From Solirubrobacterales bacterium (GTDB lineage Bacteria > Actinomycetota > Thermoleophilia > Solirubrobacterales > 70-9): 64,000 nt of DNA. Below are positions 3,316-59,497 of the stretch, in pieces. Each line of letters opens with the position of its first letter. Position 1 is the stretch's first letter. The position numbers and the translations under genes are program-made. The stretch is taken from the NCBI GenBank assembly GCA_036278095.1, contig DASULS010000008.1, positions 7,974 to 71,973 of the forward strand, written 5' to 3'. The notes beneath the pieces were generated by a model, which saw only the letters and a program-made list of their open reading frames with translations, ran no database searches and was not told the origin of the DNA.

Positions 3316-3869
3316 TGGCCGTCGCCGCTCCCGCCCGCCGCACCGCCCCGGCGCCGCGTCCCTCGCGGACGACGCCGCCGCCGAAACCGCGCAAACCGGC
3401 CCGCAAGACCGCGGCCGGGGGCGTCGCCGCTCCGGCAAAGACGCCCGCGCGCCGTCCGGCTCCCAAGCGTCAGCCCGTCACCACCCGGCCCAAGCTCGTC
3501 GTCGTCGCCGGCCGCACCGCTGGCGCCGTTCGCCAGCTGCCGGACTCGAGCCTGGTGGTGCGGATGACCCGCGGCCGCGCCTGGATCGCCGTCCTCGGGG
3601 TGCTCCTGGTCGGGATCGTCGCCCTCAACGTCGTCACCCTCAGCTTCGCCGCCTCCGCCAGCAAGATCGACGAGCAGATCACCACGCTCGAAAACGAGAA
3701 CTCGATGCTGGAAAGCCGCGTGGCCGAGCGCTACAGCACCGCCCGCGTCCGCGGCGAGGCGGCGCAGATGGGCCTGGCGATGCCGAACACCGAAGAGCCG
3801 CACGTGATCGAACTCCGTCCTGACGACGTCGCCACCGCCGCCGCGCGCCTCGCGGCCGCGGGCGGCTAG
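3315..3869 (+). CDS. FtsL-like cell division protein (Pro/Arg-rich N-terminus, one TM helix, coiled coil)
   Basis: ATG 3315 overlaps the rsmH stop. TM helix AWIAVLGVLLVGIVALNVVTL followed by SKIDEQITTLENENSMLESRV. Position between rsmH and ftsI. Confidence 0.6.
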   Translation: MAVAAPARRTAPAPRPSRTTPPPKPRKPARKTAAGGVAAPAKTPARRPAPKRQPVTTRPKLVVVAGRTAGAVRQLPDSSLVVRMTRGRAWIAVLGVLLVGIVALNVVTLSFAASASKIDEQITTLENENSMLESRVAERYSTARVRGEAAQMGLAMPNTEEPHVIELRPDDVATAAARLAAAGG

Positions 3870-20497: not shown

Positions 20498-21907
20498 GTG
20501 ACCCGCTACACCTCCGCAACCCCCGACGACCGCCGGGAGATGCTCGACGCGATCGGCGTCGACTCCCTCGACGAGCTGTTCGAGCAGATCCCCGCGGCGC
20601 TGCGCCTGGGCCGGCCGCTGGCCCTGCCCGACGGGATGCCCGAGGCGGAGGTCTACGAGCGACTGGCAGCGCTGGCCGGGCGCAACGCCGACGCCGAGGA
20701 GCAGGTCTGCTTCGTCGGGGCCGGGATGTACGACCACTACGTGCCGGCGATCGTCGACGCGATCACCTCGCGCAGCGAGTTCCTGACGCCCTACACGCCC
20801 TACCAGCCGGAGATCTCCCAGGGCGGGCTGCAGGTGATGTTCGAGTTCCAGACGGCGATGTCGGAGCTGACCGGGCTTCCGGTCTCCAACGCCGGGCTCT
20901 ACGAGGGTCCCTCCTCGGTCGCCTCGGCCGGCTATCTGGCGATGGGAGCGACGAAACGGCGTCGCTTCGTCGTCTCCCGCGGTCTGCACCCGCACAGCCG
21001 CGAGACGCTTGCGACCTACGCGGTCGGCTACGGCGCCGAGGTGATCGAGGTGGGTCTCGACGGCGGCCTGACCGACGCCGCGGCGCTGGCCGCGGCCGTC
21101 GACGGCGAGACCGCCGCCGTCTTCCTGCAGAGCCCGAACTTCCTCGGCGCGGTCGAGGACGTCGAGGCTCTGGGCGCGGCGGCGAAGGAGCACGGGGCGC
21201 TGCTGATCGTCGCCTGCGACCCGATGACCCTGGGGATCCTCAAGCCGCCGGGGGAGTGCGGCGCCGACATCGCCCTCGGCGAGGGCCAGCCGCTCGGCAA
21301 CCGCCTCGACTTCGGAGGACCGTCCTTTGGCTTCTTCTGCGCGACCGAGGCGCAGATCCGCCGCATGCCGGGGCGGATCGCCGGCGAAACCACCGACGTC
21401 GACGGCCGCCGCGGCTTCGTCCTCGCGCTGCAGACGCGCGAGCAGCACATCCGCCGCGAGAAAGCGACCAACAACATCTGCACCGCGCAGGCGCTGAACG
21501 CGCTGGGGGCGATGGTGCACCTCGCCTGGCTCGGTCGCCAGGGCTTCCGCGAGCTCGGCGAGCTGCTGGTCCAGCGGACCGCTTACGCGCGCGAGCGGCT
21601 GGCGGCGGTCGAGGGGGTCGAGCTGCTGCACGAGGCCCCGGTGGCGCGCGAGTTCGCGGTTCGGCTCGACGCGCCCGTGGACAGGGTCCTCGATCGCGTC
21701 GCCGAGCGCGGCATCGCCGCCGGCTACCCGCTCGCCCGCGACTACCCCGAGTTCGAGGACGGCCTCCTCGTCGCGATCACCGAGCGCCGGACGAAGGCCC
21801 AGATCGACGACCTCGCCGAGGCCTTGGCGGCCGCGGTTATCCAGTTGCGTGGTTCCTTAGACACCCATGACGTGTCTAAGGAACCACGAGTTGAGGGGGT
21901 GGCCTGA
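20498..21907 (+). CDS. gcvPA: Glycine dehydrogenase (decarboxylating) subunit 1
   Basis: GTG 20498. RYTSATPDDRREML and SEFLTPYTPYQPEISQG motifs. The last ~20 codons are encoded by a palindromic element. Confidence 0.9.
   Translation: MTRYTSATPDDRREMLDAIGVDSLDELFEQIPAALRLGRPLALPDGMPEAEVYERLAALAGRNADAEEQVCFVGAGMYDHYVPAIVDAITSRSEFLTPYTPYQPEISQGGLQVMFEFQTAMSELTGLPVSNAGLYEGPSSVASAGYLAMGATKRRRFVVSRGLHPHSRETLATYAVGYGAEVIEVGLDGGLTDAAALAAAVDGETAAVFLQSPNFLGAVEDVEALGAAAKEHGALLIVACDPMTLGILKPPGECGADIALGEGQPLGNRLDFGGPSFGFFCATEAQIRRMPGRIAGETTDVDGRRGFVLALQTREQHIRREKATNNICTAQALNALGAMVHLAWLGRQGFRELGELLVQRTAYARERLAAVEGVELLHEAPVAREFAVRLDAPVDRVLDRVAERGIAAGYPLARDYPEFEDGLLVAITERRTKAQIDDLAEALAAAVIQLRGSLDTHDVSKEPRVEGVA
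21848..21888. repeat. Palindromic element: 17-bp perfect inverted repeat, loop CCATGAC
   Basis: CGTGGTTCCTTAGACAC pairs with GTGTCTAAGGAACCACG. It lies inside the gcvPA tail, and the loop ATG (21867) is in frame with gcvPB. Confidence 0.85.
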
Positions 21908-31125: not shown

Positions 31126-31818
31126 GTGAGGCTGGCTAAGTTTCTGGCGCATGGGGGGGTGGCTTCTCGGCGGAGGGCTGAGAAGATCATCGGGAAGGGG
31201 TTGGTCACCGTGGGCGGCGAGGTCGTCACCGATCCGGCGCGGAACGTCGAGGAGGGGGACGACGTGCGGGTCAATGGGGAGTCGGTGGGGGCGGAGGTTC
31301 GGGAGGTTTGGGTGGTGAACAAGCCGGCGGGGGTGGTCTCGACGGCGCGGGAGCCTGGGGCGCGGCCGGCTGTGGTCGAGCTGGTGGAGACCGAGGCGCG
31401 GCTATATCCGGTCGGTCGCCTCGACGCCGACAGCACGGGCCTCTTGCTGCTGACCAACGACGGCGAGCTCGCCAACCGGCTCACCCACCCGCGCTACGAA
31501 GTGCCGAAGACCTACCGGGTGCGGCTGCGAGCCCCGCTGGCGGATCGCGACCTGCAACGGCTGCGCGACGGCGTCGAGCTGGACGACGGCCCGACCGCGC
31601 CCGCGCAGGTCAAGCGTCTCGGCGAGCACGAGGTCGAGATCACGATCCGCGAAGGCCGCAACCGCCAGGTCCGGCGGATGGCGGAGGCGGTGGGGAACCG
31701 GGTCTCAGCGCTGCAGCGGATTCGCTTTGGGCCGCTGGAGCTCGGTGGGCTGAAGGAGGGCGCCGCCCGCCGCCTTTCCGAGAACGAGATCGATCGGCTT
31801 CGCCGTGCTGCCGCCTGA
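31126..31818 (+). CDS. rluB: RsuA/RluB-family rRNA pseudouridine synthase
   Basis: S4 domain N-terminus (MRLAKFLAHGGVASRRRAEKII) and catalytic GRLDADSTGLLLLTNDG. Confidence 0.85.
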   Translation: MRLAKFLAHGGVASRRRAEKIIGKGLVTVGGEVVTDPARNVEEGDDVRVNGESVGAEVREVWVVNKPAGVVSTAREPGARPAVVELVETEARLYPVGRLDADSTGLLLLTNDGELANRLTHPRYEVPKTYRVRLRAPLADRDLQRLRDGVELDDGPTAPAQVKRLGEHEVEITIREGRNRQVRRMAEAVGNRVSALQRIRFGPLELGGLKEGAARRLSENEIDRLRRAAA

Positions 31819-31825
31819 GCGAGCC

Positions 31826-31886
31826 GAGCGAGAGCCGCGCTTCCCCTCCCCACCTGCAAGTAGGAGGGGAAACGCGGCTCTCGCTC
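31826..31886. repeat. Palindromic element: 24-nt arms with 23 matches, 13-nt loop, between convergent genes
   Basis: GAGCGAGAGCCGCGCTTCCCCTCC pairs with GGAGGGGAAACGCGGCTCTCGCTC. Confidence 0.85.
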
Positions 31887-31910
31887 TTGCCGCTCGGCGG
31901 AGTCGAGGCT

Positions 31911-32918
31911 TCAGCTGATTCGCGAGGCAATCGCGTCAGCGATGGCGGCCGCTTCTCGTTCCGCCTGCCGATGAGTGACCCGCAAGGTCGTGTAGCCAGC
32001 CCGCATCAGTTCCCGGTCGCGCCAGCGGTCGCGCTCGAAGGCGATGGGGGTGGCGTGGTAGTCGCGGCTGTCGGCCTCCAGGACGAAGCGGCGATCGGGC
32101 CAGAGGAAGTCGACCTCGATGCGGCCGTTGGCGATTTGGACCGGGGCGTTGAGGAGCGGGGTGGGGAGGCTGCGCTGGGTGAGCAGCGGCAGCACCTTCG
32201 CCTCCAGTGGGCTTTTGAGGCGGCCCTTCTTGGCCAGGGGCGCGGCGCGGCGCCATTCTTCGACCAGCGTCAGCAGGGAGCGGATGCCGCGCCGGCCCGG
32301 GTCGATCGACGCCTCGATCGCCGGGATGTCGAGCAGCCGCCGCTGCGCCGCCCGCTCGAAGGCGCTGCGCAGGGTCCAGTCGCCGACGACTCCCGCGAGG
32401 TCGACCAGCGTCCGCGCCGGGCTGGTGCAGGGGATGCCGTCGACGGTCCCGGTCTCCTCCAGGCGCGGCAGTCGCACGCGGTGGAAGCGGATGCCGTCGA
32501 TTCCCCGGCCGCGGTCGCCGGGGGCGATGACGTCGATTACGGCTGGCCCCTTGTCAAGGAGCCGCAGTAGAGCGCCGGCGCTGCGATGAGAGACGACCGC
32601 ACCTTCGCCACAGGCAAGAGTCGCGGCCCGCAACCGTCCCAGTTCCCTTACGTTCGGATGACCCAGGGAGTAAACGCCGCGGAAGATGCGATGCAGTCGC
32701 CCGTCCTCATTGGCGCGGTGGATGGCGCTCCTGCTCATTCCGAGGCCAAGTAGTTGGGAGCGCGAGACAACGCCATGCTGGCCGGCCGCCAAGGCCGCCA
32801 GTTCCCGTCCAAGATCAATGTGACTTTTGCTCGCTATGCGGATATAAGTCCCACCGCTGTGAAGTTCGCCCCCCCTTTGTCTGGGAAGATGGAGGGGCGT
32901 GACCCAAAACGGGAGCAA
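31911..32918 (-). CDS. AbiEi-like wHTH + DUF559 (Vsr-like endonuclease fold) protein, paralogue 1
   Basis: QHGVVSRSQLLGLG, GRLHRIFRGVY and EVDFLWPDRRFVLEADSRDYH blocks. The only canonical start is TTG 32918. An ATA (32837-32835) sits where the paralogues have ATG. Confidence 0.7.
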   Translation of the reverse strand: MLPFWVTPLHLPRQRGGELHSGGTYIRIASKSHIDLGRELAALAAGQHGVVSRSQLLGLGMSRSAIHRANEDGRLHRIFRGVYSLGHPNVRELGRLRAATLACGEGAVVSHRSAGALLRLLDKGPAVIDVIAPGDRGRGIDGIRFHRVRLPRLEETGTVDGIPCTSPARTLVDLAGVVGDWTLRSAFERAAQRRLLDIPAIEASIDPGRRGIRSLLTLVEEWRRAAPLAKKGRLKSPLEAKVLPLLTQRSLPTPLLNAPVQIANGRIEVDFLWPDRRFVLEADSRDYHATPIAFERDRWRDRELMRAGYTTLRVTHRQAEREAAAIADAIASRIS

Positions 32919-36947: not shown

Positions 36948-38240
36948 ATGACCCGCTTCGACCCCTCGAGACCCCTGCGCGGCGCGCTGCGGCCGCCGTC
37001 GGACAAGTCGATCTCCCACCGCGCGGCGCTGATCGCGGCGATGGGCGAAGGGGGGACGATGATCGAGGGCTACCTCGACGCCGCCGACACCCGCTCGACG
37101 CTGGCCGCGGTCGAGGCGCTCGGCGCCCGGGTGGAAGCCGGCGTGGACGGCTCGGTCTCCTCGCAGCTGCGGGTCCACGGCGTCGGCCTGCGCGGTGCCG
37201 AATCGGCCGACGTCGACGTCGGCAACGCCGGCACCCTGCTGCGGCTGCTGCCCGGCTGGCTGGCGGGGCAGGAGGGGGAGGACTGGGTCCTCGACGGCGA
37301 CGAGTCGATCCGCCGCCGCCCCGTCGACCGCATCGCCGTACCGCTGCGGCAGATGGGGGCGCGGTTGCGCTGCCGGGAGGATCGCCTGCCGCCGCTGGAG
37401 ATCGAAGGCGAGCCGCTGCGCGGGATCGCCTACGAGCTGCCGATCGCGAGCGCCCAGGTGAAGTCGTGCCTGCTCTTCGCCGGTTTGCTGGCCCACGGGG
37501 AGACGCGGGTGGTCGAGCCGCTGCCGAGCCGCGACCATACGGAGCGGATGCTCGCCGCCGCCGGCGCCTCGATCGCGCGCGAGGGCGACGCCGTCGTCGT
37601 CCAGCCCGCCGAGCGCCTGGAACCCGGCCCGATCACCGTCCCCGCCGACATCTCCTCGGCCGCCTTCTTCGTCGTCGCCACGCTTCTGGTCGGCGGCAGC
37701 GAGGTGGTGCTGGAGGAGGTCGGGGTCAACCCGACGCGGACGGGGTTGCTGGCGATCCTCGGGCGGATGGGCGCGGCGATCGAGGTCGAGGACGAGCGCG
37801 AGAGCAGCGGCGAGCCGGTCGCCTCGCTCCGCGTCCGCTCGGCGCCGCTGCGCGCCACCGAGGTCGGCGGCGCCGAGATCCCGCTGGCGATCGACGAGCT
37901 GCCGCTCGTCGCCCTCGCCGCCTGCTTCGCCGAGGGGACGACCGTGATCCGCGACGCCGAGGAGCTGAGGCGCAAGGAGTCCGACCGGATCGAGACCGTG
38001 ACCGCGGCGCTGTGCGCGCTCGGCGGCGCCGTCGAGTCGACCGCGGACGGGATGGTGGTCGAGGGGACCGGGGGTCTGCGCGGGGGCACGGTCGAGTCCC
38101 ACGGCGACCACCGGATCGCGATGCTCGGCGCCGTCGCCGGCCTTGCCTCGCGCGAGGGGGTCGAGGTGGTCGGGATGGACGCCGCGGCGGTCAGCTATCC
38201 CGGCTTCGAGGCCGACCTCGGCTCGCTGCTTAGGGCGTGA
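36948..38240 (+). CDS. aroA: 3-phosphoshikimate 1-carboxyvinyltransferase (EPSP synthase)
   Basis: PSDKSISHRA, VGNAGTLLRLL and LRRKESDRI motifs. Confidence 0.95.
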   Translation: MTRFDPSRPLRGALRPPSDKSISHRAALIAAMGEGGTMIEGYLDAADTRSTLAAVEALGARVEAGVDGSVSSQLRVHGVGLRGAESADVDVGNAGTLLRLLPGWLAGQEGEDWVLDGDESIRRRPVDRIAVPLRQMGARLRCREDRLPPLEIEGEPLRGIAYELPIASAQVKSCLLFAGLLAHGETRVVEPLPSRDHTERMLAAAGASIAREGDAVVVQPAERLEPGPITVPADISSAAFFVVATLLVGGSEVVLEEVGVNPTRTGLLAILGRMGAAIEVEDERESSGEPVASLRVRSAPLRATEVGGAEIPLAIDELPLVALAACFAEGTTVIRDAEELRRKESDRIETVTAALCALGGAVESTADGMVVEGTGGLRGGTVESHGDHRIAMLGAVAGLASREGVEVVGMDAAAVSYPGFEADLGSLLRA

Positions 38241-38241
38241 G

Positions 38242-39057
38242 GTGCGCGGCGCCGACCTCGAGGTGGAGCGCCTGGGGGAGGGGCCGCCGGTCCTCTTCGT
38301 CCCCGGCAGCGTCGTCGGAGCGGAGCTGACCTGGCGCCGCCAGCGCGCGCTCGCCGGGCGCTGGACGCTGATCTTCCCCAACCGGCCCGGCTTCGGCGCC
38401 AGTCCGCCGCTGCCGCGCAACGACTTCGAGGCCGAAGCGCCGCTGTTCGCCGAGCTGCTCGGCGACGGCGCCCACCTCGTCGGCCACTCCTACGGCGCGG
38501 TGATCGCCCTCTACGCGGCGGCGCTGCGCCCCGAGGCGGTGCTCTCGCTGACCGTCTCGGAGCCGGGCACCCTGCAGCTGGCGGGGACGCCCGAGGCGGC
38601 GGAGATGATCGCCAACGGCGAGCGTCTCTACGCGGCGGCCGACTCGATCGCGCCGCTCGACTTCGTCCGCATGTTCCGCTTCGGCGCCAACTCCGCCCGT
38701 GAGACGCCGAGCGAGCTGCCCGAGCCGCTGCGCCGCGGGGCCGAGCTGGCGATGCGCGAGCGCCCGCCCTGGGAGGGCGAGGTCCCGCTCGAGCGCCTCG
38801 CCGCGGCGGGCATCCCGGCGCTGGTCGTCTCCGGCGGCCACTCGCCGGTCTTCGAGGCCGTCTGCGACCGCCTCGCCGAGGCGCTGGGAGCGGAGCGGGA
38901 GACGATCGAAGGCAAGGGCCATAGCGTCCCCGAGACCGGCGACCCCTACAACCAACTCCTGAAGCGGTTCCTAGCCTCGCACGATCACGGCGCCGCCAGC
39001 GGAGCATCGTTTCCACCTTTGTCCTCGTTATGGCGAGGAAAAGGGTGGAAACGATGA
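38242..39057 (+). CDS. Alpha/beta hydrolase (Ser nucleophile GHSYG)
   Basis: GTG 38242, just after the aroA stop. The GHSYG elbow is present. The last 17 codons are encoded by the 55-nt hairpin module. Confidence 0.7.
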
Positions 39058-39058
39058 G
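39004..39058 (+). repeat. 55-nt hairpin module, copy 1 (ATG in loop)
   Basis: 51 of 55 nt identical to 42373-42427. Stem 39005-39027 pairs with 39034-39056. Loop TTATGG carries the ATG at 39030. Confidence 0.85.
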
Positions 39059-39713
39059 CAAATACGCTGCCGCCATGGTGATCGCGATCGACGGCCCGGC
39101 CGGGGCCGGCAAGTCCTCGGTGGCGCGCGCCGTCGCCGCCGAGCTCGGCTTCACCTATCTCGACTCGGGGGCGATGTACCGCTGCGTCGCCCTGGTGGCG
39201 CTGGAGCGGGGGATCGACCTCGACGACGGCAAGGCGCTGGGCGAGCTGGCCGAGGGGCTGGAGATCGGCTTCGACGGCCGCCGCGTCTTCATCGGCGAGC
39301 GCGAGGTAGGCGACGAGATCCGCACCCCCGCGGTCAGCGCCGCCGCGTCGCGGGTCTCGGTCCACCAGCGCGTGCGCGCGGCGATGGTCGCCCGCCAGCG
39401 GCAGCTGATCGCCGCCGGTCGCTACGTCGCCGAGGGCCGCGACATCGGCACCGCGGTCAGCCCCGAGGCGCCGCTGAAGGTCTTCCTCACCGCCTCCGAC
39501 GAGGAGCGGGCGCGCCGCCGCGCGGCGGAGACGGGCGAGCCGGTGGCGGAGGTGCTCGCCGCCCAGCAGCGCCGCGACGCCAGCGACACCGAGCGCGAGC
39601 ACGGCGCCCTGCGCGCCGCCGACGACGCGGTCGAGCTGGACACGACCGGGCTCTCGCTCTTGGAGGTCGTCGCTCGGGTGGTTTCCCTGGCCCGCGAACG
39701 GGGGCCCGCGTGA
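39054..39713 (+). CDS. cmk: Cytidylate kinase
   Basis: [14 protein letters not shown]-loop. ATG 39054 overlaps the hydrolase stop (ATGA). An in-frame alternative ATG at 39030 lies in the hairpin loop. Confidence 0.9.
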
Positions 39714-41026
39714 GCCTGCCCACCGTCGCCGTCGTCGGCTTCCCCAACGTCGGTAAGAGCACCCTCGTCAACCGGCTGGTCGGCGGCACCGAGGCGGTCA
39801 CCTCGCCCGAGCCCGGCGTCACCCGCGACCGCAAGCGGCTCGCCACCGAATGGAACGGAGTCGCCTTCGAGCTGGTCGACACCGGCGGCATCGACCTCGG
39901 CGACGAGGCCGAGCTGGCCCGCGACGTGCAGGCGCAGGCGCGGGTGGCGATCGCCGAAGCCGACGCGATCCTGCTGGTCGTCGACGGCCGCGCCGGGCTG
40001 CGTGGCGGCGACGCCGAGCTGGCGAAGACGCTGCGCGGCGGCGCGGTGCCGGTGATCGTCGTCGTCAACAAGGCCGACCGGCCGAACGACTACGGCATCG
40101 CCGCCGAGTTCCACGCGCTGGGGCTGGGCGAGCCGCTGGCGGTCTCCGCCACCCATGGGCTCGGCACCGGCGACCTGCTCGACGCGACCGTCGCCGCGCT
40201 CGGCGAGCGCGAGCCGCAGGCGGAGGCCGACGAGGCGGTCCGGGTCGCGGTGATCGGCCGCCCCAACGTCGGCAAGTCCTCGCTCGTCAACGCCTTCCTC
40301 GGCTCCGAGCGGGTGATCGTCTCCGACATCGCCGGCACCACTCGCGACGCGATCGACACCAGGCTCGAGGTCGACGGCCGCCCGGTCGTCCTCGTCGACA
40401 CGGCCGGCCTGCGCCGCCGCTCGAAGGTGGCCGGCACGGTCGACTACTACGCGCAGCTGCGCAGCGAACGGGCGGTCGAGCGAGCCGACGTGGCGATCGT
40501 CGTCTGCGACGCCTCCGAGGGGGTGACCTCCGAGGACCTGCGGGTGGCGGAGATGGCGATGAAGGCCGGTTGCGCCAGCCTGCTGGCGATGAACAAGTGG
40601 GACGTCACCGAGACCGACATCGACGATGCCCGCGCCCGGGTCGAGCGCAAACTGCGGCTGCGCCCGGCGGTGATCACGATCTCGGCGACCCGCGGGCGCA
40701 ACGTCAACACCCTGCTGCCGCGGGCGCTGGAACTTGCCGACCGGGCCGGGGAGCGGATCCCGACGCCGGAGCTGAACCGCTTCGTCAGCGACGTCGTCGC
40801 GAAGAACCCGCCGCCGGCCCGGCGCGGCCGCCGCCTCCGCCTCTTCTACGCGGCGCAGGTGGGAGAGCGGCCGCCGCGGATCGCGATCCAGGTCAACGAC
40901 CGCAAGCTGATCACCCGCGACTGGGCCTACCACCTGGAGAACCGGATGCGCGAGACCTATGGCCTGGAGGGGGTGCCGCTGGTGATCGACTTCGTCCCGC
41001 GCTCGGGCTACCGAGGGCGCGAGTGA
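39710..41026 (+). CDS. der: Ribosome-associated GTPase Der (EngA)
   Basis: Two GTPase domains: [13 protein letters not shown] and [17 protein letters not shown]. Confidence 0.95.
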
Positions 41027-41067
41027 CACCGGGCGTCTTCGGTCGATCTTCCTTTACTCTTCCGCCC

Positions 41068-42318
41068 ATGCCAACTTCCAAGCCGCTCGCCGAGGGCGAG
41101 TACCTCTTCACGTCGGAGTCAGTCACCGAGGGACACCCGGACAAGGTCGCCGACGCGATCTCCGACGGGGTGCTCGACGCGATCATGGCCGAAGACCCGG
41201 GCGGCCGGGTCGCCTGCGAGACCCTGGTCAACACTGGCATGGCGGTCGTCTCCGGTGAGATCTCCACCGACGTCCACCTCAACATCCCCGAGATCGTGCG
41301 CGAGACGGTGCGCGGGATCGGCTACGACCACGGCGACTACGGCTACCACTGCGACCACATCTCGGTCCTCACCTCGATCGACAAGCAGTCGCCCGACATC
41401 GCCCAGGGCGTCGACCGCGCTTACGAGACGCGGGTCGACCCCGCCGACGACGACGAGCTCGACGTCGCCGGCGCCGGCGACCAGGGGATGATGTTCGGCT
41501 ACGCCAGCGACGAGACCGAGGCGCTGATGCCGATGCCGATCCACCTCGCCCACCGGCTCGCAGAACGGCTGGCAGCGGTGCGCAAGGACGGCAGCCTTGA
41601 CTACCTCGGCCCTGACGGCAAGACCCAGGTCACCGTCCGCTACGCGTATGGTCGCCCCGTCTCGGTCGAGAAGCTGCTGATCTCGACCCAGCACGAAGAG
41701 GGAATCGACTCCCAGAGCCAGATCAAGCCGGAGCTATGGGAGGGCGTCGTGTTGCCGGTCCTGGAGGCCGAGGTCCCCGATCGCTTCGACGCAAACGCGC
41801 TTCAAGAGCAGTTCCTCGTCAACCCGACCGGCAAGTTCGTGATCGGCGGCCCGGTCGGCGACGCGGGTCTCACCGGCCGCAAGATCATCGTCGACACCTA
41901 CGGCGGCATGGCCCGCCACGGCGGCGGCGCCTTCTCCGGCAAGGACCCGTCCAAGGTCGACCGCTCAGCCGCATACGCCGCCCGCCACGTGGCGAAGAAC
42001 GTCGTCGCCGCCGGGCTGGCGCAGCGCTGCGAGGTCCAGGTCGCCTACGCGATCGGCGTCGCCCACCCGGTCTCGCTGATGGTCGAGACCTTCGGCACCG
42101 GCAAGCTGCCCGACTCGAAGATCTCGCAGCTGGTCGAAGCCGAGTTCGACATGCGCCCCGGCGCCTTCCGCGAGTACCTCGACCTCCATCGCCCGATCTT
42201 CCAGAAGACCGCCGCCTACGGCCACTTCGGCCGCGAGGACGACGACTTCACCTGGGAGCGCACCGACCGCGCCGACGCCCTCCGCACCGCCGCCGGCGCC
42301 GAAGCCGCCGCCGCGTAG
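41068..42318 (+). CDS. metK: S-adenosylmethionine synthetase
   Basis: [24 protein letters not shown] and [19 protein letters not shown] motifs. Confidence 0.97.
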
Positions 42319-42372
42319 TCCCGCAAAACGCGGCAGTAACTCAACCCCCTCCAAAGCGCAGGGGGAAGAGCT

Positions 42373-42427
42373 GCATCGTTTCCACCCTTGTCCTCGTTAT
42401 GGCGAGGAGAAAGGTGGAAACGAGGAG
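42373..42427 (+). repeat. 55-nt hairpin module, copy 2 (ATG in loop is the start of DUF559 paralogue 2)
   Basis: 51 of 55 nt identical to 39004-39058. Loop ATG at 42399. Confidence 0.85.
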
Positions 42428-43349
42428 TCGGTTGGCGTGGGAGCTGGCGGGAAGGCAGCATGGAGTGGTGGGGCGGGCGCAGCTGTTGGGGCTGGGATTT
42501 ACGAAGAGCGGGATCGAGCATCGGCTGAAGAAGGGACGGCTCCACCGGGTCTCCGACGGCGTCTACCTGGTGGGGTGGGCGCGGCTCACTCGCGAGCGCC
42601 GTTGGATGGCGGCGGTGCTTGCCTGCGGAGACGGGGCGATGCTCAGCCATCGCAGCGCCGCAGCGCTCTGGGGATTCGGCAAGGAGCGGAAGGGAGTGAT
42701 CGACGTCAGCGTTCGCCGTCATTGCAAGGTGCGGCGGGTGGGAATCCACGTGCGCGATCGTCCCGGTCTCCGGAACCGCGATGTCGGCACGCGCCTCGAC
42801 ATCCCCGTTACCCAGCCCGTCCGCACCTTCCTCGACATCGCGACGGAACTGCCCGACAACGAGGTCGAGCGGGCGGTCAACGCGGCGGACAAGTGCGACG
42901 TGATCGATCCGGACCGGCTACGCCGGGCGCTTGGGGATCATCCTGGTGAGCCTGGTATCCGCCGCCTCCGCCGCGTGCTCGACGAGCACACCTTCCGCCT
43001 CTCCGACGACGAACTGGAACTCCTCTTCCGGCCGATCGCTGCTGCCGCCGGCCTACCGACCCCGCTCACGAAACAGCGCGTCAACAAGTTCGAGGTCGAC
43101 TTCTTCTGGCCCGACCTCGCCCTCGTCGTCGAGACCGATGGCTGGCGCTACCACCGCACGCCCTCGGCCCAGACCCGCGACGCGCTCCGCTTCCAGCGCC
43201 ATACCGCCGCCGGACTGACGCCCCTGCGCTTCTCCCACTACCAGGTCAAGTACGAACCCCGCCACGTCCGCCAGATCCTCGAACAGACCGCGGCGAACTT
43301 ATTGAGCCGGCGGTTGAGCTTCGCCGAGCCCGTGTTCGCCGGCGGCTGA
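42399..43349 (+). CDS. AbiEi-like wHTH + DUF559 protein, paralogue 2
   Basis: QHGVVGRAQLLGLG, GRLHRVSDGVY, RWMAAVLACGDGAMLSHRSAAALWG and EVDFFWPDLALVVETDGWRYH blocks. Its 3' end overlaps the convergent PH-domain gene by 51 nt. Confidence 0.8.
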   Translation: MARRKVETRSRLAWELAGRQHGVVGRAQLLGLGFTKSGIEHRLKKGRLHRVSDGVYLVGWARLTRERRWMAAVLACGDGAMLSHRSAAALWGFGKERKGVIDVSVRRHCKVRRVGIHVRDRPGLRNRDVGTRLDIPVTQPVRTFLDIATELPDNEVERAVNAADKCDVIDPDRLRRALGDHPGEPGIRRLRRVLDEHTFRLSDDELELLFRPIAAAAGLPTPLTKQRVNKFEVDFFWPDLALVVETDGWRYHRTPSAQTRDALRFQRHTAAGLTPLRFSHYQVKYEPRHVRQILEQTAANLLSRRLSFAEPVFAGG

Positions 43350-43814
43350 GACGCCCGTCGCCCGGTCCACGGACTGGACGACGTCGCCCGGGTCGGCTAC
43401 CCCGGCGAAGACGAAGTTGTAGTCGTCGGTCGCGGCCGTGTCGAAGTCGACGTCGCCGATCTGCATCAGGCGCTGGTAGACGCTCTGGCGGTAGTTGACG
43501 TTCTGGACCCGCTCCAGGCGCGTCTCCTGGATCTCCCGCGAGATGATCCCGCGCTTGATGTTGAGGCGGTGGTTGGTGATCGTGTAGGTCGTCGCCACCC
43601 GTTTGACGAAGCCGACGAGGATCGTGATCGCGAGGACGACGAGGATCACCACGAAGGCGCTGCCGTTGCCGTCGACCAGCTTCGCGATCACGCCGAGGAT
43701 CACCGCGATCAGCAGCCCTTTGAGGTAGAAGCCGAGGATCGCGCGCCAGGAGGGGTGGCCCTGGAAGATCACCTGCTCTCCTGGCCTGAGGTTGAAGCTC
43801 ACGGGCGCCAGCAT
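43299..43814 (-). CDS. Membrane protein with bacterial PH (YdbS/YdbT-like) domain
   Basis: ATG 43814 is preceded by a GGGGGACGAGGG SD-like run. Two TM helices, then ATTYTITNHRLNIKRGIISRE. Confidence 0.7.
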   Translation of the reverse strand: MLAPVSFNLRPGEQVIFQGHPSWRAILGFYLKGLLIAVILGVIAKLVDGNGSAFVVILVVLAITILVGFVKRVATTYTITNHRLNIKRGIISREIQETRLERVQNVNYRQSVYQRLMQIGDVDFDTAATDDYNFVFAGVADPGDVVQSVDRATGVSAAGEHGLGEAQPPAQ

Positions 43815-43849
43815 AAGCCCTCGTCCCCCGGCACGCATAACCTCAGCCG

Positions 43850-46045
43850 GTGGCGATCCTCCGCGTCGAGCCGCTGACCACCGCCCGCGCTCTGCGTGGC
43901 CCCTTCGACTACCGCCGGCCGGAGGCGATGGCGGATCTCGGCGTCGGCAGCGTTGTCCGCGTCCCCTTCGGGCCGCGCCGCATCCTCGGCGTCGTCGTCG
44001 AGGTCGCCGAGGCCTCCGAGCTGCCGCCGGAGCGGCTCGCCGAGCCGCTTGAGGCGCTGGAGGCAGGGGCGACGCCGGAGCTGGTCCGGCTCGGCCTCTG
44101 GGTCGCCCGCGAGTATTGCTCGACCCCCTCGCGCGGCCTGCAGCTGGTGCTGCCGCCGGGGACCGGGACCGGCAGCAAAGGCCGCACGGTGCGGGCGAAG
44201 ACCGAGCTGCGCGCCACGATCCTCCCGGCCGGGGAGGCTGCCCTGGCCGGCGGCGAGCGGCTGGGGACGAAACAGCGGGCGGCGCTCGACGCGCTCCGCT
44301 CGGGCGAGATGTCGGCCGGCGAGCTGGCGACCGCGGTCGGCGCCGACCACCAGACCCTGCGCCGGCTCGAGGGGCGCGGCCTCATCGCCACCCGCACCGC
44401 GACCGTCCGCCGCATCCCCGGCGAGCCGGGCCTCTCGGGAGCGGCGGAGCGCCCCCAGTTCCTGCCCGAGCAGGAGGAGGCGGTCGCGGCGCTTGTCGCC
44501 GCCCTCGACGGCGAGGCCGGCTCCCCGCGTCAGCTGCTCCTCCACGGCGTCACCGGCTCCGGCAAGACCGAGGTCTACCTGGCTGCCGTCGAGGCGGCGC
44601 TGGAGCGGGGGAAGGGGGCGATCGTCCTCGTCCCCGAGATCGGCCTCGCCCCGCAGGCGGTCGCCCGCTTCCGCGCCCGCCTCGGCGACCGCTTCGCCGT
44701 GCTGCACTCGGCCCTCTCCGCCGGCGAGCGCTACGACGAGTGGCGGCGCCTGCGCGACGGCGAGGCGAGCGTCTGCGTCGGCCCCCGCTCCGCCGTCTTC
44801 GCCCCCGTCCGCGACCTCGGCCTGATCGTGATCGACGAGGAGCACGACCCCTCCTACAAGCAGGAGGGCGACCCCACCTACGACGCCCGCGCCGTCGCCC
44901 GCAAGCGCGCCGCCGAGAGCGGCGCCGTCCTCGTCGCCGGGACCGCGACGCCGCGCCCGGAGAGCTGGCTGGAGCTGCCGCGCCTGGAGCTGCCGCGCCG
45001 GGTCGACGGCCGCCGGATGCCGCCGGTCCACCTGGTCGACATGCGCGAGGCCGACCCGCGCAGCGGGCCGGTCCACGCCGAGACCTGGGAGGCGCTGGAG
45101 GAGGTCCGCGCCGCCGGCGCCAAGGCGATCGTGATGATCAACCGCCGCGGCTTCGCCCCCTGGCTCACCTGCCGCTCCTGCGGCCACCACTGGAGCTGCC
45201 CCAACTGCGACGTCTCGCTGATCGTCCACCGCCACAGCGGCCGCCTCGTCTGCCACCACTGCGCCCACGCCGAGCCGCAGCCGCGCGCCTGCCCCGAGTG
45301 TGGCTCGACCACGCTCGCCCAGGCCGGTGCCGGGACCGAGCGGATCGAGCGGCTGCTGGCCGAGCGCCTCGACCCGATGCCGGTCCTGCGCCTCGACTCC
45401 GACACCGCCGCCGAGCGCGGCGCCCACGCCCGCATCCTCGCCCGCTTCGACGAGACCCCGAGCGCCGTCCTCGTCGGCACCCAGATGGTCGCCAAGGGCC
45501 ACGACTTCCCCGAGGTGACGCTGAGCGCGATCCTCGACGCCGACGCGACCCTGCGCTTCCCCGACTTCCGCGCCGAGGAGCGGACCTTCGCGATGGTCGC
45601 CCAGCTCGCCGGCCGCTCGGGACGCGGCGAGGCAGGGGGAGAGGTGATCGTCCAGACCCTGGCCCCGAACGCCTCCAGCATCGAGCACGCCGCCCGCCAC
45701 GACTCCGCCGGCTTCCTCGAGGTCGAGCTGGGGCGCCGCGAGGCGCTGCGCTACCCGCCCTTCTCGCACCTGACCCGGATCAACTTCGCCGCCGAGCAGG
45801 AGGCGAGGCTCGAAGACGCCGCCGCGGGCGTGGCCGGCGAGCTGCGGCGGGCGCTGCCGCCGGAGTCGGAGCTGCTGGGGCCGGCGCCGATGTTCCGGGT
45901 GCGGAACCGGTATCGGCGGCGGGTCATGATCAAGGCGCAGGATCGTGAGGGGGCGATTTTGGCCGTTCGCGAGGTGGTGGAACGTCGGGTTGCGGATCGG
46001 TCGCTCAAGGACGTGGCGATCGGGGTGGACGTGGATCCGCAGTAG
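43850..46045 (+). CDS. priA: Primosomal protein N' (PriA helicase)
   Basis: GTG start. Walker A GVTGSGKTEVY, DEEHD, and the Cys-rich zinc region CRSCGHHWSCPNC...CHHC...CPECGS. Confidence 0.95.
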   Translation: MAILRVEPLTTARALRGPFDYRRPEAMADLGVGSVVRVPFGPRRILGVVVEVAEASELPPERLAEPLEALEAGATPELVRLGLWVAREYCSTPSRGLQLVLPPGTGTGSKGRTVRAKTELRATILPAGEAALAGGERLGTKQRAALDALRSGEMSAGELATAVGADHQTLRRLEGRGLIATRTATVRRIPGEPGLSGAAERPQFLPEQEEAVAALVAALDGEAGSPRQLLLHGVTGSGKTEVYLAAVEAALERGKGAIVLVPEIGLAPQAVARFRARLGDRFAVLHSALSAGERYDEWRRLRDGEASVCVGPRSAVFAPVRDLGLIVIDEEHDPSYKQEGDPTYDARAVARKRAAESGAVLVAGTATPRPESWLELPRLELPRRVDGRRMPPVHLVDMREADPRSGPVHAETWEALEEVRAAGAKAIVMINRRGFAPWLTCRSCGHHWSCPNCDVSLIVHRHSGRLVCHHCAHAEPQPRACPECGSTTLAQAGAGTERIERLLAERLDPMPVLRLDSDTAAERGAHARILARFDETPSAVLVGTQMVAKGHDFPEVTLSAILDADATLRFPDFRAEERTFAMVAQLAGRSGRGEAGGEVIVQTLAPNASSIEHAARHDSAGFLEVELGRREALRYPPFSHLTRINFAAEQEARLEDAAAGVAGELRRALPPESELLGPAPMFRVRNRYRRRVMIKAQDREGAILAVREVVERRVADRSLKDVAIGVDVDPQ

Positions 46046-58615: not shown

Positions 58616-59497
58616 ATGGGCCACAAAAGCGACACGGTCGATTCGCGTGTGGCGAGAATCGCGGCGCAGCAGCATGGAGTCGTGACGTTGCGGCAGCTCG
58701 AAGAGGTGGGATTGACGCGCGAGGCGACTTACAAGCGAGCGCGGAGAGGACGTTTGCACCGCCTCCACCGCGGTGTCTACGCGGTGGGGCACCGTGCCCC
58801 CACGCACCACAGCCGCTGGATGGCCGCGGTGCTCGCTTGCGGTGAGGGAGCGGTGTTGAGCCACGGGTCCGCGGCGGCGCTTTGGGGACTCCTGCGGCCG
58901 ATCAACGGACCCATTCATGTCTCCGTGCCATCCACCACGGGCCGCAAGCGACGCTCCGGAATCCACCTCCACCGAGTGCCCTCCCTCTCGCCCTCCTCCT
59001 CAGCAATTAGAGGAGGGCGAGAGGGAGGGCGCGTGTGCACCCGCCGCCACAACATCCCCGTGACCACGATCCAACGCACGATCGACGACCTCGAGGGCTC
59101 CATTGCCCCGTACCTCCTGCGTCGCGCTCGCCGCCAAGCCGAGCTGATGGGCGTGCGCCTCGAGGGCGCCGAGGGGCGCCGCCTCCGCTCCGATCTCGAG
59201 GAAGGCTTCCTCGCGCTCTGCCACCGCCACCCCTTGCCACCGCCCGAGACGAACGTCAAGCTCGGCCGCTGGGAGGTCGACTTCCTCTGGCGCGAGCAGA
59301 AGCTCGTCGTCGAAATCGACTCGTTCCTCTACCACCGAGGGTCGATCTCATTCCACGAAGACCACGCTCGCGACCTCGACCTGCGTCGACGTGGCTACAC
59401 GGTGCTGCGCTTCACGGAAAAGCAGCTCGAAGAGGAACCCGAGCACCTCGCCGCCGACGTGGCGCGGGCCCTCGGCGAGAAAGCGCTAGCCGTCTGA
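58616..59497 (+). CDS. AbiEi-like wHTH + DUF559 protein, paralogue 3 (carries an internal palindrome)
   Basis: QHGVVTLRQLEEVG, GRLHRLHRGVY, RWMAAVLACGEGAVLSHGSAAALWG and EVDFLWREQKLVVEIDSFLYH blocks. Its 3' end overlaps the convergent MMPL gene by 12 nt. Confidence 0.8.
   Translation: MGHKSDTVDSRVARIAAQQHGVVTLRQLEEVGLTREATYKRARRGRLHRLHRGVYAVGHRAPTHHSRWMAAVLACGEGAVLSHGSAAALWGLLRPINGPIHVSVPSTTGRKRRSGIHLHRVPSLSPSSSAIRGGREGGRVCTRRHNIPVTTIQRTIDDLEGSIAPYLLRRARRQAELMGVRLEGAEGRRLRSDLEEGFLALCHRHPLPPPETNVKLGRWEVDFLWREQKLVVEIDSFLYHRGSISFHEDHARDLDLRRRGYTVLRFTEKQLEEEPEHLAADVARALGEKALAV
58978..59030. repeat. Palindromic element inside a coding sequence: 20-bp perfect inverted repeat, 13-nt loop
   Basis: GCCCTCCCTCTCGCCCTCCT 58978-58997 is the reverse complement of 59011-59030. 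It is translated in frame as PSLSPSSSAIRGGREGG. Confidence 0.9.

Follow-up and report, generated by a model that had tools for sequence, protein, structure and literature searches.

Few non-coding features are as common in bacterial genomes as repetitive extragenic palindromic (REP)-like repeats, and to our knowledge the REP-associated tyrosine transposases (RAYTs) are the only class of partner enzyme known for them. The palindrome described here, about 50 bp long, occurs twice in a 64,000-nt stretch of a Solirubrobacterales genome (assembly GCA_036278095.1, contig DASULS010000008.1, positions 7,974–71,973 of the forward strand; hereafter the window). One copy (copy 1) is located upstream of the cytidylate kinase gene cmk, and the other (copy 2) covers the 5′ end of a gene whose product combines an AbiEi-like region with a DUF559 nuclease domain. 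The arrangement is probably analogous to REP/RAYT: the role of the RAYT would fall to a protein that joins an AbiEi-type DNA-binding part to a homing-endonuclease-like domain.

REP palindromes and their REPIN doublets share several properties with the present repeat. Both are short palindromes with many, mostly extragenic copies, both lack target duplication, and intragenic copies occur in both (PMC3733652). In each case a single-copy, syntenic gene with vertical inheritance is associated with the repeat, and inverted copies of the dispersed repeat flank it. Lineage-specific families, several family/gene pairs per genome and concerted evolution are also common to the two. The systems differ in the flanked gene, which here encodes an AbiEi winged helix-turn-helix (wHTH) and a PD-(D/E)xK nuclease of the Vsr/EDxHD type instead of an HUH/Y1 transposase. 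The repeat unit is a single near-perfect palindrome of 46–54 bp rather than a REP doublet, and it is devoid of the GTAG tag. Moreover, the open reading frame (ORF) of the putative partner begins in the loop of the left hairpin and, in two families (B and C), ends in the right hairpin, and the copies so far number tens per genome, not hundreds. According to Di Nocera et al. (PMC3733652), the CGTC-tagged REP class as a whole has no dedicated transposase.

AbiEi represses its own operon through two 23-bp inverted repeats that are 3 bp apart and overlap the promoter and transcription start, and Rv2827c of Mycobacterium tuberculosis likewise uses 23-bp repeats, 13 bp apart; neither protein binds the operator of the other (PMC7319586). 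The N-terminal ∼185–200 residues of the present protein match AbiEi by profile and fold, and the palindrome resembles the AbiEi operator, in geometry only, through its 20- to 23-bp inverted arms, its 4- to 6-bp spacer and its overlap with the gene start. Unlike the AbiEi operator, the putative operator has tens of additional genomic copies, and in contrast to the AbiE type IV toxin–antitoxin system, a nuclease domain is fused to the protein in place of a separate AbiEii (DUF1814) partner. The C-terminal domain is predicted to share its fold and its invariant acidic and histidine residues with I-Bth0305I and other Vsr-like DUF559 nucleases. It differs from I-Bth0305I in the location of the gene outside any intron or intein and in the N-terminal DNA-binding part.

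Two further groups of elements are comparable in part. IS200/IS605 insertion sequences (ISs) also carry hairpins at both ends of a small gene without target duplication, and the 5′ hairpin covers the translation start, as the IS200 stem-loop sequesters the ribosome-binding site; the present gene differs in that it is not associated with TnpA and occupies fixed syntenic positions instead of being multi-copy. Rickettsia palindromic elements (RPEs) and intragenic REPs resemble the repeat as in-frame translated insertions, exemplified here by a 17-residue tail of a hydrolase, but RPEs are unrelated in sequence, belong to another host clade and have no known partner gene.

The palindrome and its dispersed family

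Copy 1 (positions 39004–39058 of the window, assigned to neither strand) and copy 2 (42373–42427, + strand) are identical at 51 of 55 positions, and the likeness breaks off abruptly at both 55-nt borders. The 55-mer has exactly these two matches in the window, compared with a chance expectation of none. The core of copy 1 (39005–39056) consists of the arms CGTTTCCACC and GGTGGAAACG and the loop TTATGG, and it represents a solo member of the family, whereas copy 2 is a gene-linked member that overlaps the 5′ end of the AbiEi-DUF559 gene. In fold predictions of the + strand RNA, copy 1 forms a 23-bp stem (−39.4 kcal/mol, z −9.9) and copy 2 forms a stem of ∼20 bp (−36.7 kcal/mol, z −6.1). The apical loop of both is the 4-nt UAUG with a G-U closing pair and holds ATG 39030 in copy 1 and ATG 42399 in copy 2. 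Window matching and folding thus confirm the two hairpins with a loop ATG that an initial annotation of this DNA had reported. The frames it assigned to the two codons are also correct, as ATG 39030 opens an ORF that continues through cmk (39030–39713) and ATG 42399 shares its frame with the DUF559 ORF, whose end is at 43349. The − strand folds of copies 1 and 2 are nearly as stable (−31.9 and −32.7 kcal/mol, respectively) because the element is a near-perfect palindrome. The stems are followed on their 3′ sides by the tails GAGCAAAT and GAGTCGGT, neither of which contains a U-tract. Scans of positions 38000–44000 identified no terminator-like site and no sigma-70 promoter, and an Rfam 15 scan of the whole window at gathering thresholds returned zero matches.

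The two modules are almost certainly members of a lineage-specific family of dispersed ∼50-bp palindromes, designated family A. A first scan, with the 5′ arm as the query and one genome per species, identified 18 true copies in 11 Solirubrobacterales metagenome-assembled genomes (MAGs), with unique flanks and in both orientations. A second scan, with both outer arms, yielded at least 118 loci. The loci fetched contain at least 100 elements with an arm-to-arm length of exactly 46 nt, and nearly all of them come from ∼30 MAGs labelled Solirubrobacterales or 'uncultured Actinomycetes', the richest of which holds at least 12 family A loci. The possibility raised in the initial annotation that the genome contains only two copies is therefore not borne out in the related genomes, which hold many. 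Arm matches in other phyla have a different spacing and are attributable to chance, and a search of a viral collection of 2.9 M contigs gave two arm-pattern matches, neither of which is a family member. A covariance model built from 97 members, applied without filtering to the whole window, detects copies 1 and 2 only, and over 676 kb of related DNA it adds almost no diverged copies. In the literature searched, no description of palindromic repeats in Solirubrobacterales and no link of DUF559 to REP-like repeats were found.

The family A consensus is a perfect palindrome, RT-CGTTTCCACC-CTTTTCCTCG-CTATAG-CGAGGAAAAG-GGTGGAAACG-AY. The inner stem exists in two compensating versions, TCCTCG/CGAGGA and GGCCC/GGGCC (or GGTTC/GAACC), and the pair 21–34 is CG in 49 copies and GC in 42. 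Within the stem, 155 cells are altered on both sides, compared with 109 ± 8 after shuffling, and this covariation signal vanishes once the partners are slid by 1–3 columns. The loop generally reads CTATAG; away from the two special sites at cmk and the DUF559 gene, just 15 of 80 copies carry an ATG there, whichever orientation is read. The flank profile contains no direct repeats at the element ends, where the symmetric RT...AY extension is observed, and no GTAG tag, while CGTCG occurs in ∼40% of copies and at both ends. Comparison of the flanks and of empty and filled sites revealed neither a target-site duplication nor a parent IS of the kind expected for a miniature inverted-repeat transposable element (MITE).

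Approximately 90% of the copies are solos, located after stop codons, between convergent genes or in frame within genes. With gene calls from a position-specific GC log-odds caller, whose start coordinates are approximate, the family A copies fall into intergenic regions flanked by tandem (37), convergent (19) or divergent (12) genes and into called ORFs (21). Copies between convergent genes are often only 1–3 nt from both stop codons (TGAT-CG...CG-ATCA). The solos of family C, introduced below, have a similar distribution, and divergent intergenic regions are under-represented overall (22 of 137 classified solo copies). Tandem solos show no bias between sense and antisense stability (14 versus 16), and this lack of strand bias fits a DNA-level palindrome.

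The family A consensus is open in two of its three reading frames. Of the copies inside ORFs, twelve are genuine in-frame insertions, flanked on both sides by a strong coding signal; one of these (...AEL[RRFHPxPxYxxxKGGND]GPPPVSADTFS...) occupies the same orthologous site in eight genomes, and another (...WALTRL[...]LPTVSLI) does so in four. Other copies supply a C-terminal tail and a stop codon, as observed in the hydrolase of the window. Elements in frame in two conserved genes are found at L019:6007, L046:6163, L068:1215, L071:2409, L085:4672, L087:3689 and L095:429, with further examples at L007:1099, L062:6984, L093:1837 and L107:4196, and are translated as (R)RFHPxPxYxxxKGGND.

Within a genome, gene-linked and solo copies show concerted evolution. 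The inner-stem type is genome-specific, with 12 of 12 copies of one type in DASSVR, 7 of 7 and 6 of 6 of the other type in DASTGL and CAWAUA, respectively, and 9 of 10 copies uniform in DASUQZ. Copies compared over the variable inner 26 nt have an identity of 0.735 if they share a genome and 0.637 if they do not. For gene-linked against solo copies, the values are 0.742 in one genome and 0.634 between different genomes (permutation p < 0.0005). Likewise, the cmk-site copy and the DUF559-site copy of the same genome share an identity of 0.82, compared with 0.66 among orthologous cmk-site copies across genomes. The two window copies, identical at 51 of 55 positions, exemplify this within-genome homogenisation. 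Chimeric elements at L054:4844 and L085:4672 combine half-stems of both subtypes (e.g. GGCCC with GGAGG) so that the inner stem is broken; such chimeras may point to recombination or to partial conversion among copies.

The AbiEi-DUF559 gene and its hairpins

Copy 2 is best read as the gene-linked copy of the family at the start of a vertically inherited gene. Among the matches listed, 80 orthologues of the AbiEi-DUF559 gene are 60–85% identical. Nearly all of them contain a hairpin of 20–28 bp at the same distance from a conserved QHG motif, with lineage-specific arms. In 69–70 of the 80, an in-frame start codon is located in the apical loop or within 2 nt of it (ATG in 43, GTG in 26–27), and in several of the remaining orthologues the apparent lack reflects errors in locating the hairpin centre. 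All 11 family A orthologues have the loop xTATGG, as opposed to four of eight cmk-site copies in the same genomes (Fisher p = 0.018) and 15 of 80 copies elsewhere (p = 1.6e-7, uncorrected for shared ancestry). Residues 2–5 of the protein vary in step with the stem (ARRK, GATK, GVQK and others); this stretch thus follows the palindrome instead of being dictated by what the protein does. In the orthologues L092 and L070, an in-frame stop directly precedes the loop ATG, and the start is therefore not further 5′.

ATG 42399 in the loop is thus the likely start of the DUF559 gene, although not, as the initial annotation had proposed, the only plausible one. GTG 42414, in the invariant 3′ arm, is the only other start common to every family A orthologue, and TTG 42432, which follows AGGAG, is in frame in the window but is not conserved. 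Annotation pipelines differ in the start that they choose for AbiEi-DUF559 genes. A GGGGGAAGAG motif is located just upstream of copy 2 (42361–42370, + strand), at −38 to −29 from the loop ATG. A GGGGGAGAG-like motif is found upstream of the gene-linked hairpins of families A, B and C in varied contexts and is absent from solos. It might act as a −35-like element or as a ribosome-binding site.

The arms of the gene-linked hairpins define several families. Those of family A are CGTTTCCACC..GGTGGAAACG, with the covarying variants CCAGA/TCTGG; those of families B, C and D are CTCTCCGAACTT..AAATCTCGGAGAG, GCGCATCCGACATTGACC..GGTCAATGTCGGATGCGC and CGTATCCAGA..TTGGATACG, respectively, and several further families exist. 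In families B and C, a second copy is located 930–1030 nt downstream at the 3′ end of the gene. The 3′ copy of family C is the inverted 5′ copy: the 5′ loop TCAGGTG provides the in-frame GTG, and its 3′ complement CACCTGA provides the TGA stop (ORF ...RASDIDHT*), while a second frame is stopped within the arm (ATTGACC). These families are also dispersed. A genome scan for family C found at least 120 loci, with at least 94 solo, at least 25 gene-5′ and at least 22 gene-3′ copies; complete chromosomes hold several solos each (at least five each in OY970245.1 and OY969812.1), with loops unlike those of gene-linked copies. A metagenome scan for family B found 94 solo, 23 gene-5′ and 14 gene-3′ copies. 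The loop ATG is present in 23 of 23 gene-5′ copies of family B, and the consensus of its solo loops is CTATAG.

The hairpin-flanked gene occurs in at least nine distinct genomic contexts, each of which is conserved within its group. The three large synteny groups comprise 35 genomes (metK–gene–bPH_2–priA), 28 genomes (family C) and 8 genomes. The window belongs to the first: metK (41068–42318, + strand) is the upstream neighbour of copy 2, and bPH_2 (43299–43838, − strand) is convergent with the DUF559 gene and overlaps its 3′ end, with the order metK–hairpin/DUF559–bPH_2–priA kept in all 35 genomes. In some genomes the gene is present twice, each time with another hairpin family, and some contigs hold both family A and family B.

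In relatives, a 3′ hairpin that includes the DUF559 stop codon separates the DUF559 gene from bPH_2. In the metK group this hairpin, 'T', has the form GCGCGGCCnCCCTGCACCCT-loop-AGGGTGCAGGGnGGCCGCGC with the stop codon at the loop edge. In the window and in L137, L143, L160 and L178, ∼75 nt that include the 3′ hairpin are lost, and the window ORF consequently continues into bPH_2 in antisense. The C-terminal tail of the protein (residues ∼305–316) lacks conservation, which is explained by the loss of the usual 3′ hairpin in the window. Relatives (L132–L170, at ∼3410–3450) contain a gene-specific, non-dispersed 3′ hairpin CCTGCACCC...GGGTGCAGG with stems of ∼22 bp, whose loop has the DUF559 stop codon at its edge. 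At L144:3473, L145:3501 and L092:5838, a family A 5′ hairpin is combined with a family B hairpin just past the 3′ hairpin, and such pairs on one gene may be relics of a family switch. A candidate empty site between bPH_2 and priA, obtained by comparing the window with L010 and L092, has unclean boundaries and is not used as evidence of insertion.

The AbiEi-DUF559 gene itself extends from 42399 to 43349 on the + strand, with GTG 42414 and TTG 42432 as its alternative starts. Pfam assigns AbiEi_4 to residues 15–58 and DUF559, of the Vsr/EDxHD homing-endonuclease-like type, to residues 227–294, and PADLOC identifies AbiEi over residues 9–183 (E 2.6e-28). An AlphaFold (AF2) model has a predicted local distance difference test (pLDDT) value of 87.6. 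In Foldseek comparisons, the first ∼200 residues of the model match Streptococcus agalactiae AbiEi (6y8q; E 3.4e-6, template modelling [TM] score 0.64), and the C-terminal domain matches the catalytic domain of I-Bth0305I (3r3p; TM 0.80) and also NGO0050 (3hrl) and Vsr (1cw0). A search of the PDB by sequence with the protein gave no match. Residues E232, D234, E245, D247, H252 and D261 are invariant in 20 sequences, distant paralogues included, and homologues with AbiEi_4 and DUF559 number more than 7000. The gene has no intron or intein context, and an AbiEii (DUF1814 nucleotidyltransferase) toxin is not encoded downstream, where the convergent bPH_2 is found instead.

The DNA-binding module appears to diverge together with the hairpin arms, with modest support from sequence comparison. 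Between family A and family B orthologues of the metK group, the identity of the nuclease domain is nearly unchanged (0.817 within families and 0.81 between them), whereas that of the wHTH decreases from 0.663 to 0.615 and that of the AbiEi C-terminal domain from 0.716 to 0.62.

Copy 1 and the start of cmk

The palindrome is present at the junction upstream of cmk in eight genomes. In the seven genomes other than the window, the upstream gene is aroA, and its TGA abuts the element; the hydrolase intervenes in the window only. The loops at the eight cmk sites are TTATGG (one), TTGGGG (one), CTATAG (three) and CTATGG (three). In most of the eight orthologous copies, ATG 39030 is absent or out of frame, and ATG 39054, which the initial annotation regarded as the conventional cmk start, is missing, out of frame or followed by a stop. 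The sole start conserved in the eight orthologues is ATG-GTG-ATC, which corresponds to ATG 39075 in the window. The cmk gene very probably starts at this codon (39075–39713, + strand), and its product from there contains Pfam Cytidylate_kin at residues 3–207 (profile positions 1–210 of 211). The loop ATG of copy 1 would accordingly be incidental for cmk.

Empty aroA/cmk sites are found in two relatives, L379 and L058. The L379 site reads ...ccgcTGA|ATACGCTGCGGGC-ATGGTG, and that of L058 is similar, which gives the empty form TGA|ATACGCT; filled sites have the form TGA-gcat-element-acgacga-ATACGCT. The comparison of empty and filled sites therefore identifies copy 1 as a discrete insertion without target duplication, placed after the upstream stop codon and before the −10-like box of cmk. 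This box, TACGCT (39063–39068, + strand), has the form TANNNT, ends 6 nt before ATG 39075 and is present in all orthologues, including the element-free L379 and L058.

A TANNNT box at −12 to −7 from an A or G start is the standard layout of actinobacterial leaderless genes. By analogy with this promoter layout, from which the function of the box is deduced, the cmk mRNA is probably leaderless. The same pattern is observed at priA (TAACCT-cagccg-GTG, 43835–43852, with GTG at 43850). In both genes the box ends 6 nt before the start without a Shine–Dalgarno sequence, and the pattern is kept in the orthologues. Leaderless mRNAs may be common in this organism, as judged from these sequences.

The α/β-hydrolase ORF upstream of cmk (38242–39057, + strand) has no stop of its own. 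Its last 17 codons and stop (39007–39057) are read from copy 1, in agreement with the initial annotation, and no stop precedes TGA 39055–39057 in the ORF. The Pfam domain of the hydrolase is already complete by residue 232 of 271. A stop-codon loss, in which the GGA before the element would be a mutated TGA, was considered and rejected, as the upstream gene of the orthologues is aroA.

Proposed mechanism, alternatives and implications

A recognition of the palindrome by the AbiEi-DUF559 protein is suggested because the geometry of the AbiEi operator matches and because the site is located on the start of an AbiEi-type gene. The AbiEi part would bind the palindrome as double-stranded DNA, and binding at its own gene would lead to autoregulation. 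The start codon would be placed in the spacer, the sole part of the site that is free to vary. Transcription would probably start at or near the dyad centre and produce an mRNA without the 5′ arm, in which the blocking hairpin could not form. Such an mRNA would not need a Shine–Dalgarno sequence, and a start codon inside a stem of −37 to −55 kcal/mol would be explained. The same protein would recognise the solo copies, and through its nuclease domain they would spread, turn over and become homogenised within the genome, a role like that ascribed to the RAYT for REP/REPIN. The parts of this mechanism differ in strength. By analogy with AbiEi, binding of the palindrome by the protein is on balance expected, whereas mobilisation or homogenisation of the copies by the protein, by analogy with RAYTs, is a tentative proposal. 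A previously undescribed system, in which an AbiEi-wHTH/DUF559 fusion and not an HUH transposase recognises, homogenises and spreads ∼50-bp palindromes, is a serious possibility that falls somewhat short of an even chance. The same reserve applies to the notion that the ORF of the protein in such a system would begin in the loop of one flanking palindrome and extend into the second.

Several observations weigh against this interpretation. The link between the protein and the repeat is associative. An A-type gene-linked copy is confirmed in only ∼17 of 30 assemblies with A solos, a count limited by incomplete MAGs and made on orthologues among the matches listed, and DATFQO, DATIOC, JAWVFA and DATHFL contain family A solos but a B hairpin on the metK-linked gene. 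Four to six orthologues are true exceptions to the loop start codon, namely L139, L141, L142 and L198 (loop CTATAG), as well as L205 and L209. The window gene is without any 3′ hairpin (43290–43349), and the T hairpin of its relatives (CTGCACCC...GGGTGCAG) is unrelated to the 5′ hairpin and is not dispersed; as a candidate dispersed family it was rejected, as 32 of 32 matches in 2.37 Mb are gene-linked. Flanking of the gene by its own repeat is therefore complete in families B and C only. Direct reading of the sequence reveals no sigma-A-type −10 box 7 nt upstream of ATG 42399, so that leaderless transcription of this gene finds no support in a recognised promoter, and a stem of about −37 kcal/mol, if fully transcribed, should strongly block initiation. 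DUF559 paralogues 1 and 3 in the window lack family hairpins; paralogue 1 has no hairpin at its ends, and paralogue 3 has only an unrelated terminator-like hairpin beyond its 3′ end.

Among the alternatives, an ordinary REP- or MITE-like selfish repeat survives best, although it is unlikely. The palindrome would be moved by an unrelated transposase (RAYT, IS200/IS605 or other), with the DUF559 gene as a favoured or tolerated landing site whose loop ATG was co-opted. The REP-like traits of the family, which is short, mostly extragenic, often located after stop codons, sometimes in frame and without target duplication, are compatible with such a repeat, as are the A solos that coexist with a B-type gene-linked hairpin in some genomes. 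A favoured landing site does not readily account for three unrelated arm families at the identical position on one gene family, for the transfer of these arm families with the gene into at least nine contexts or for the genome-specific subtype that gene-linked copies share with solos. In addition, the GTAG tag is absent, and none of the flanked genes encodes a Y1/HUH transposase, as they contain AbiEi_4 and DUF559 instead; RAYT and IS200 genes elsewhere in the genomes were not searched for.

The initial annotation had offered, as one of two readings, a portable RNA-level 5′ module, in which a loop-presented AUG promotes unconventional initiation on any downstream gene, cmk included. The dispersal of the repeat and the loop ATG of copy 2, which looks like the DUF559 start, agree with the portable character that was proposed. 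The loop start codon is conserved at the DUF559 gene and is not preceded by a Shine–Dalgarno sequence. G-U pairs (83) also outnumber A-C mismatches (22) in 81 gene-linked hairpins, a count that is uncorrected for relatedness and inconclusive. The generality of the module is not retained, as ∼90% of copies are solos away from gene 5′ ends, most of them without a loop ATG, solo copies show no strand bias, and cmk starts not from copy 1, whose ATGs 39030 and 39054 are unconserved, but in all likelihood at 39075. The stability of initiator hairpins has reportedly been related to translation by de Smit and van Duin, and initiation at an AUG embedded in a stem of −37 to −55 kcal/mol is expected to be suppressed. 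An RNA-level module is thus improbable.

Host elements kept by selection, such as bidirectional terminators, stabilisers of mRNA 3′ ends or operators of an AbiEi-DUF559 regulon, are similarly improbable. Such functions would be in line with the many copies that lie 1–3 nt from the stops of both convergent genes, with the retention of orthologous-site copies in at least eight genomes and with the scarcity of copies in divergent regions. They are at variance with the missing U-tract and the empty terminator scan, with the in-frame intragenic and divergent-region copies and with inner stems that change in concert and genome by genome at orthologous sites, for which turnover or gene conversion is needed. 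Finally, the suggestion that copy 1 is the solo 5′ scar of a lost DUF559 copy fused to cmk is highly improbable despite its near-identity to the DUF559-linked copy and the shared TTATGG loop, as the same junction is filled in eight genomes without a DUF559 remnant, the empty sites indicate a clean element-sized insertion, and the likeness of the window copies fits the homogenisation seen within every genome.

Three other inverted repeats were noted in the window. A perfect 21-bp inverted repeat at 58978–59030 (GCCCTCCCTCTCGCCCTCCTC ... GAGGAGGGCGAGAGGGAGGGC) is located in the linker region of the DUF559 paralogue 1 ORF (58616–59497) and looks like another in-frame palindromic insertion. A hairpin at 31817–31895, with 33-nt arms that are 85% complementary, lies between convergent genes directly 3′ of the third AbiEi_4/DUF559 paralogue (31911–32918, − strand). 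Its score of 19.6 bits against the covariance model is weak, and it is classified as terminator-like rather than as a family A member. An unrelated 43-nt hairpin at 21847–21889 (GCGTGGTTCCTTAGACAC-CCATGAC-GTGTCTAAGGAACCACGA, 53% GC) is embedded in the 3′ end of the ORF at 20498–21907, which we take to encode a gcvPA-like glycine dehydrogenase subunit. No second copy of this hairpin is found in ∼3 Mb of related DNA. Its loop ATG 21867 opens the longest form of the next ORF, the start of which is more likely ATG 21909, preceded by GAGGGGG.

For the window, these results correct the cmk start to 39075 and identify the C-terminal 17 residues of the hydrolase as repeat-derived. If confirmed, the proposed system would explain long palindromes in high-GC genomes that distort gene calls and add tails or inserts to proteins, and it would provide a natural start codon at the dyad centre of an operator-like palindrome for the study of leaderless or structure-gated initiation. 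The abundant AbiEi_4+DUF559 proteins of actinobacteria, currently annotated as 'antitoxin domain-containing' or 'very short patch repair endonuclease', would gain a testable function, and with them a very large family of more than 7000 homologues. The system would also constitute a second, independent route to REP-like repeats and would bear on the mobilisation of REP classes that lack a RAYT.

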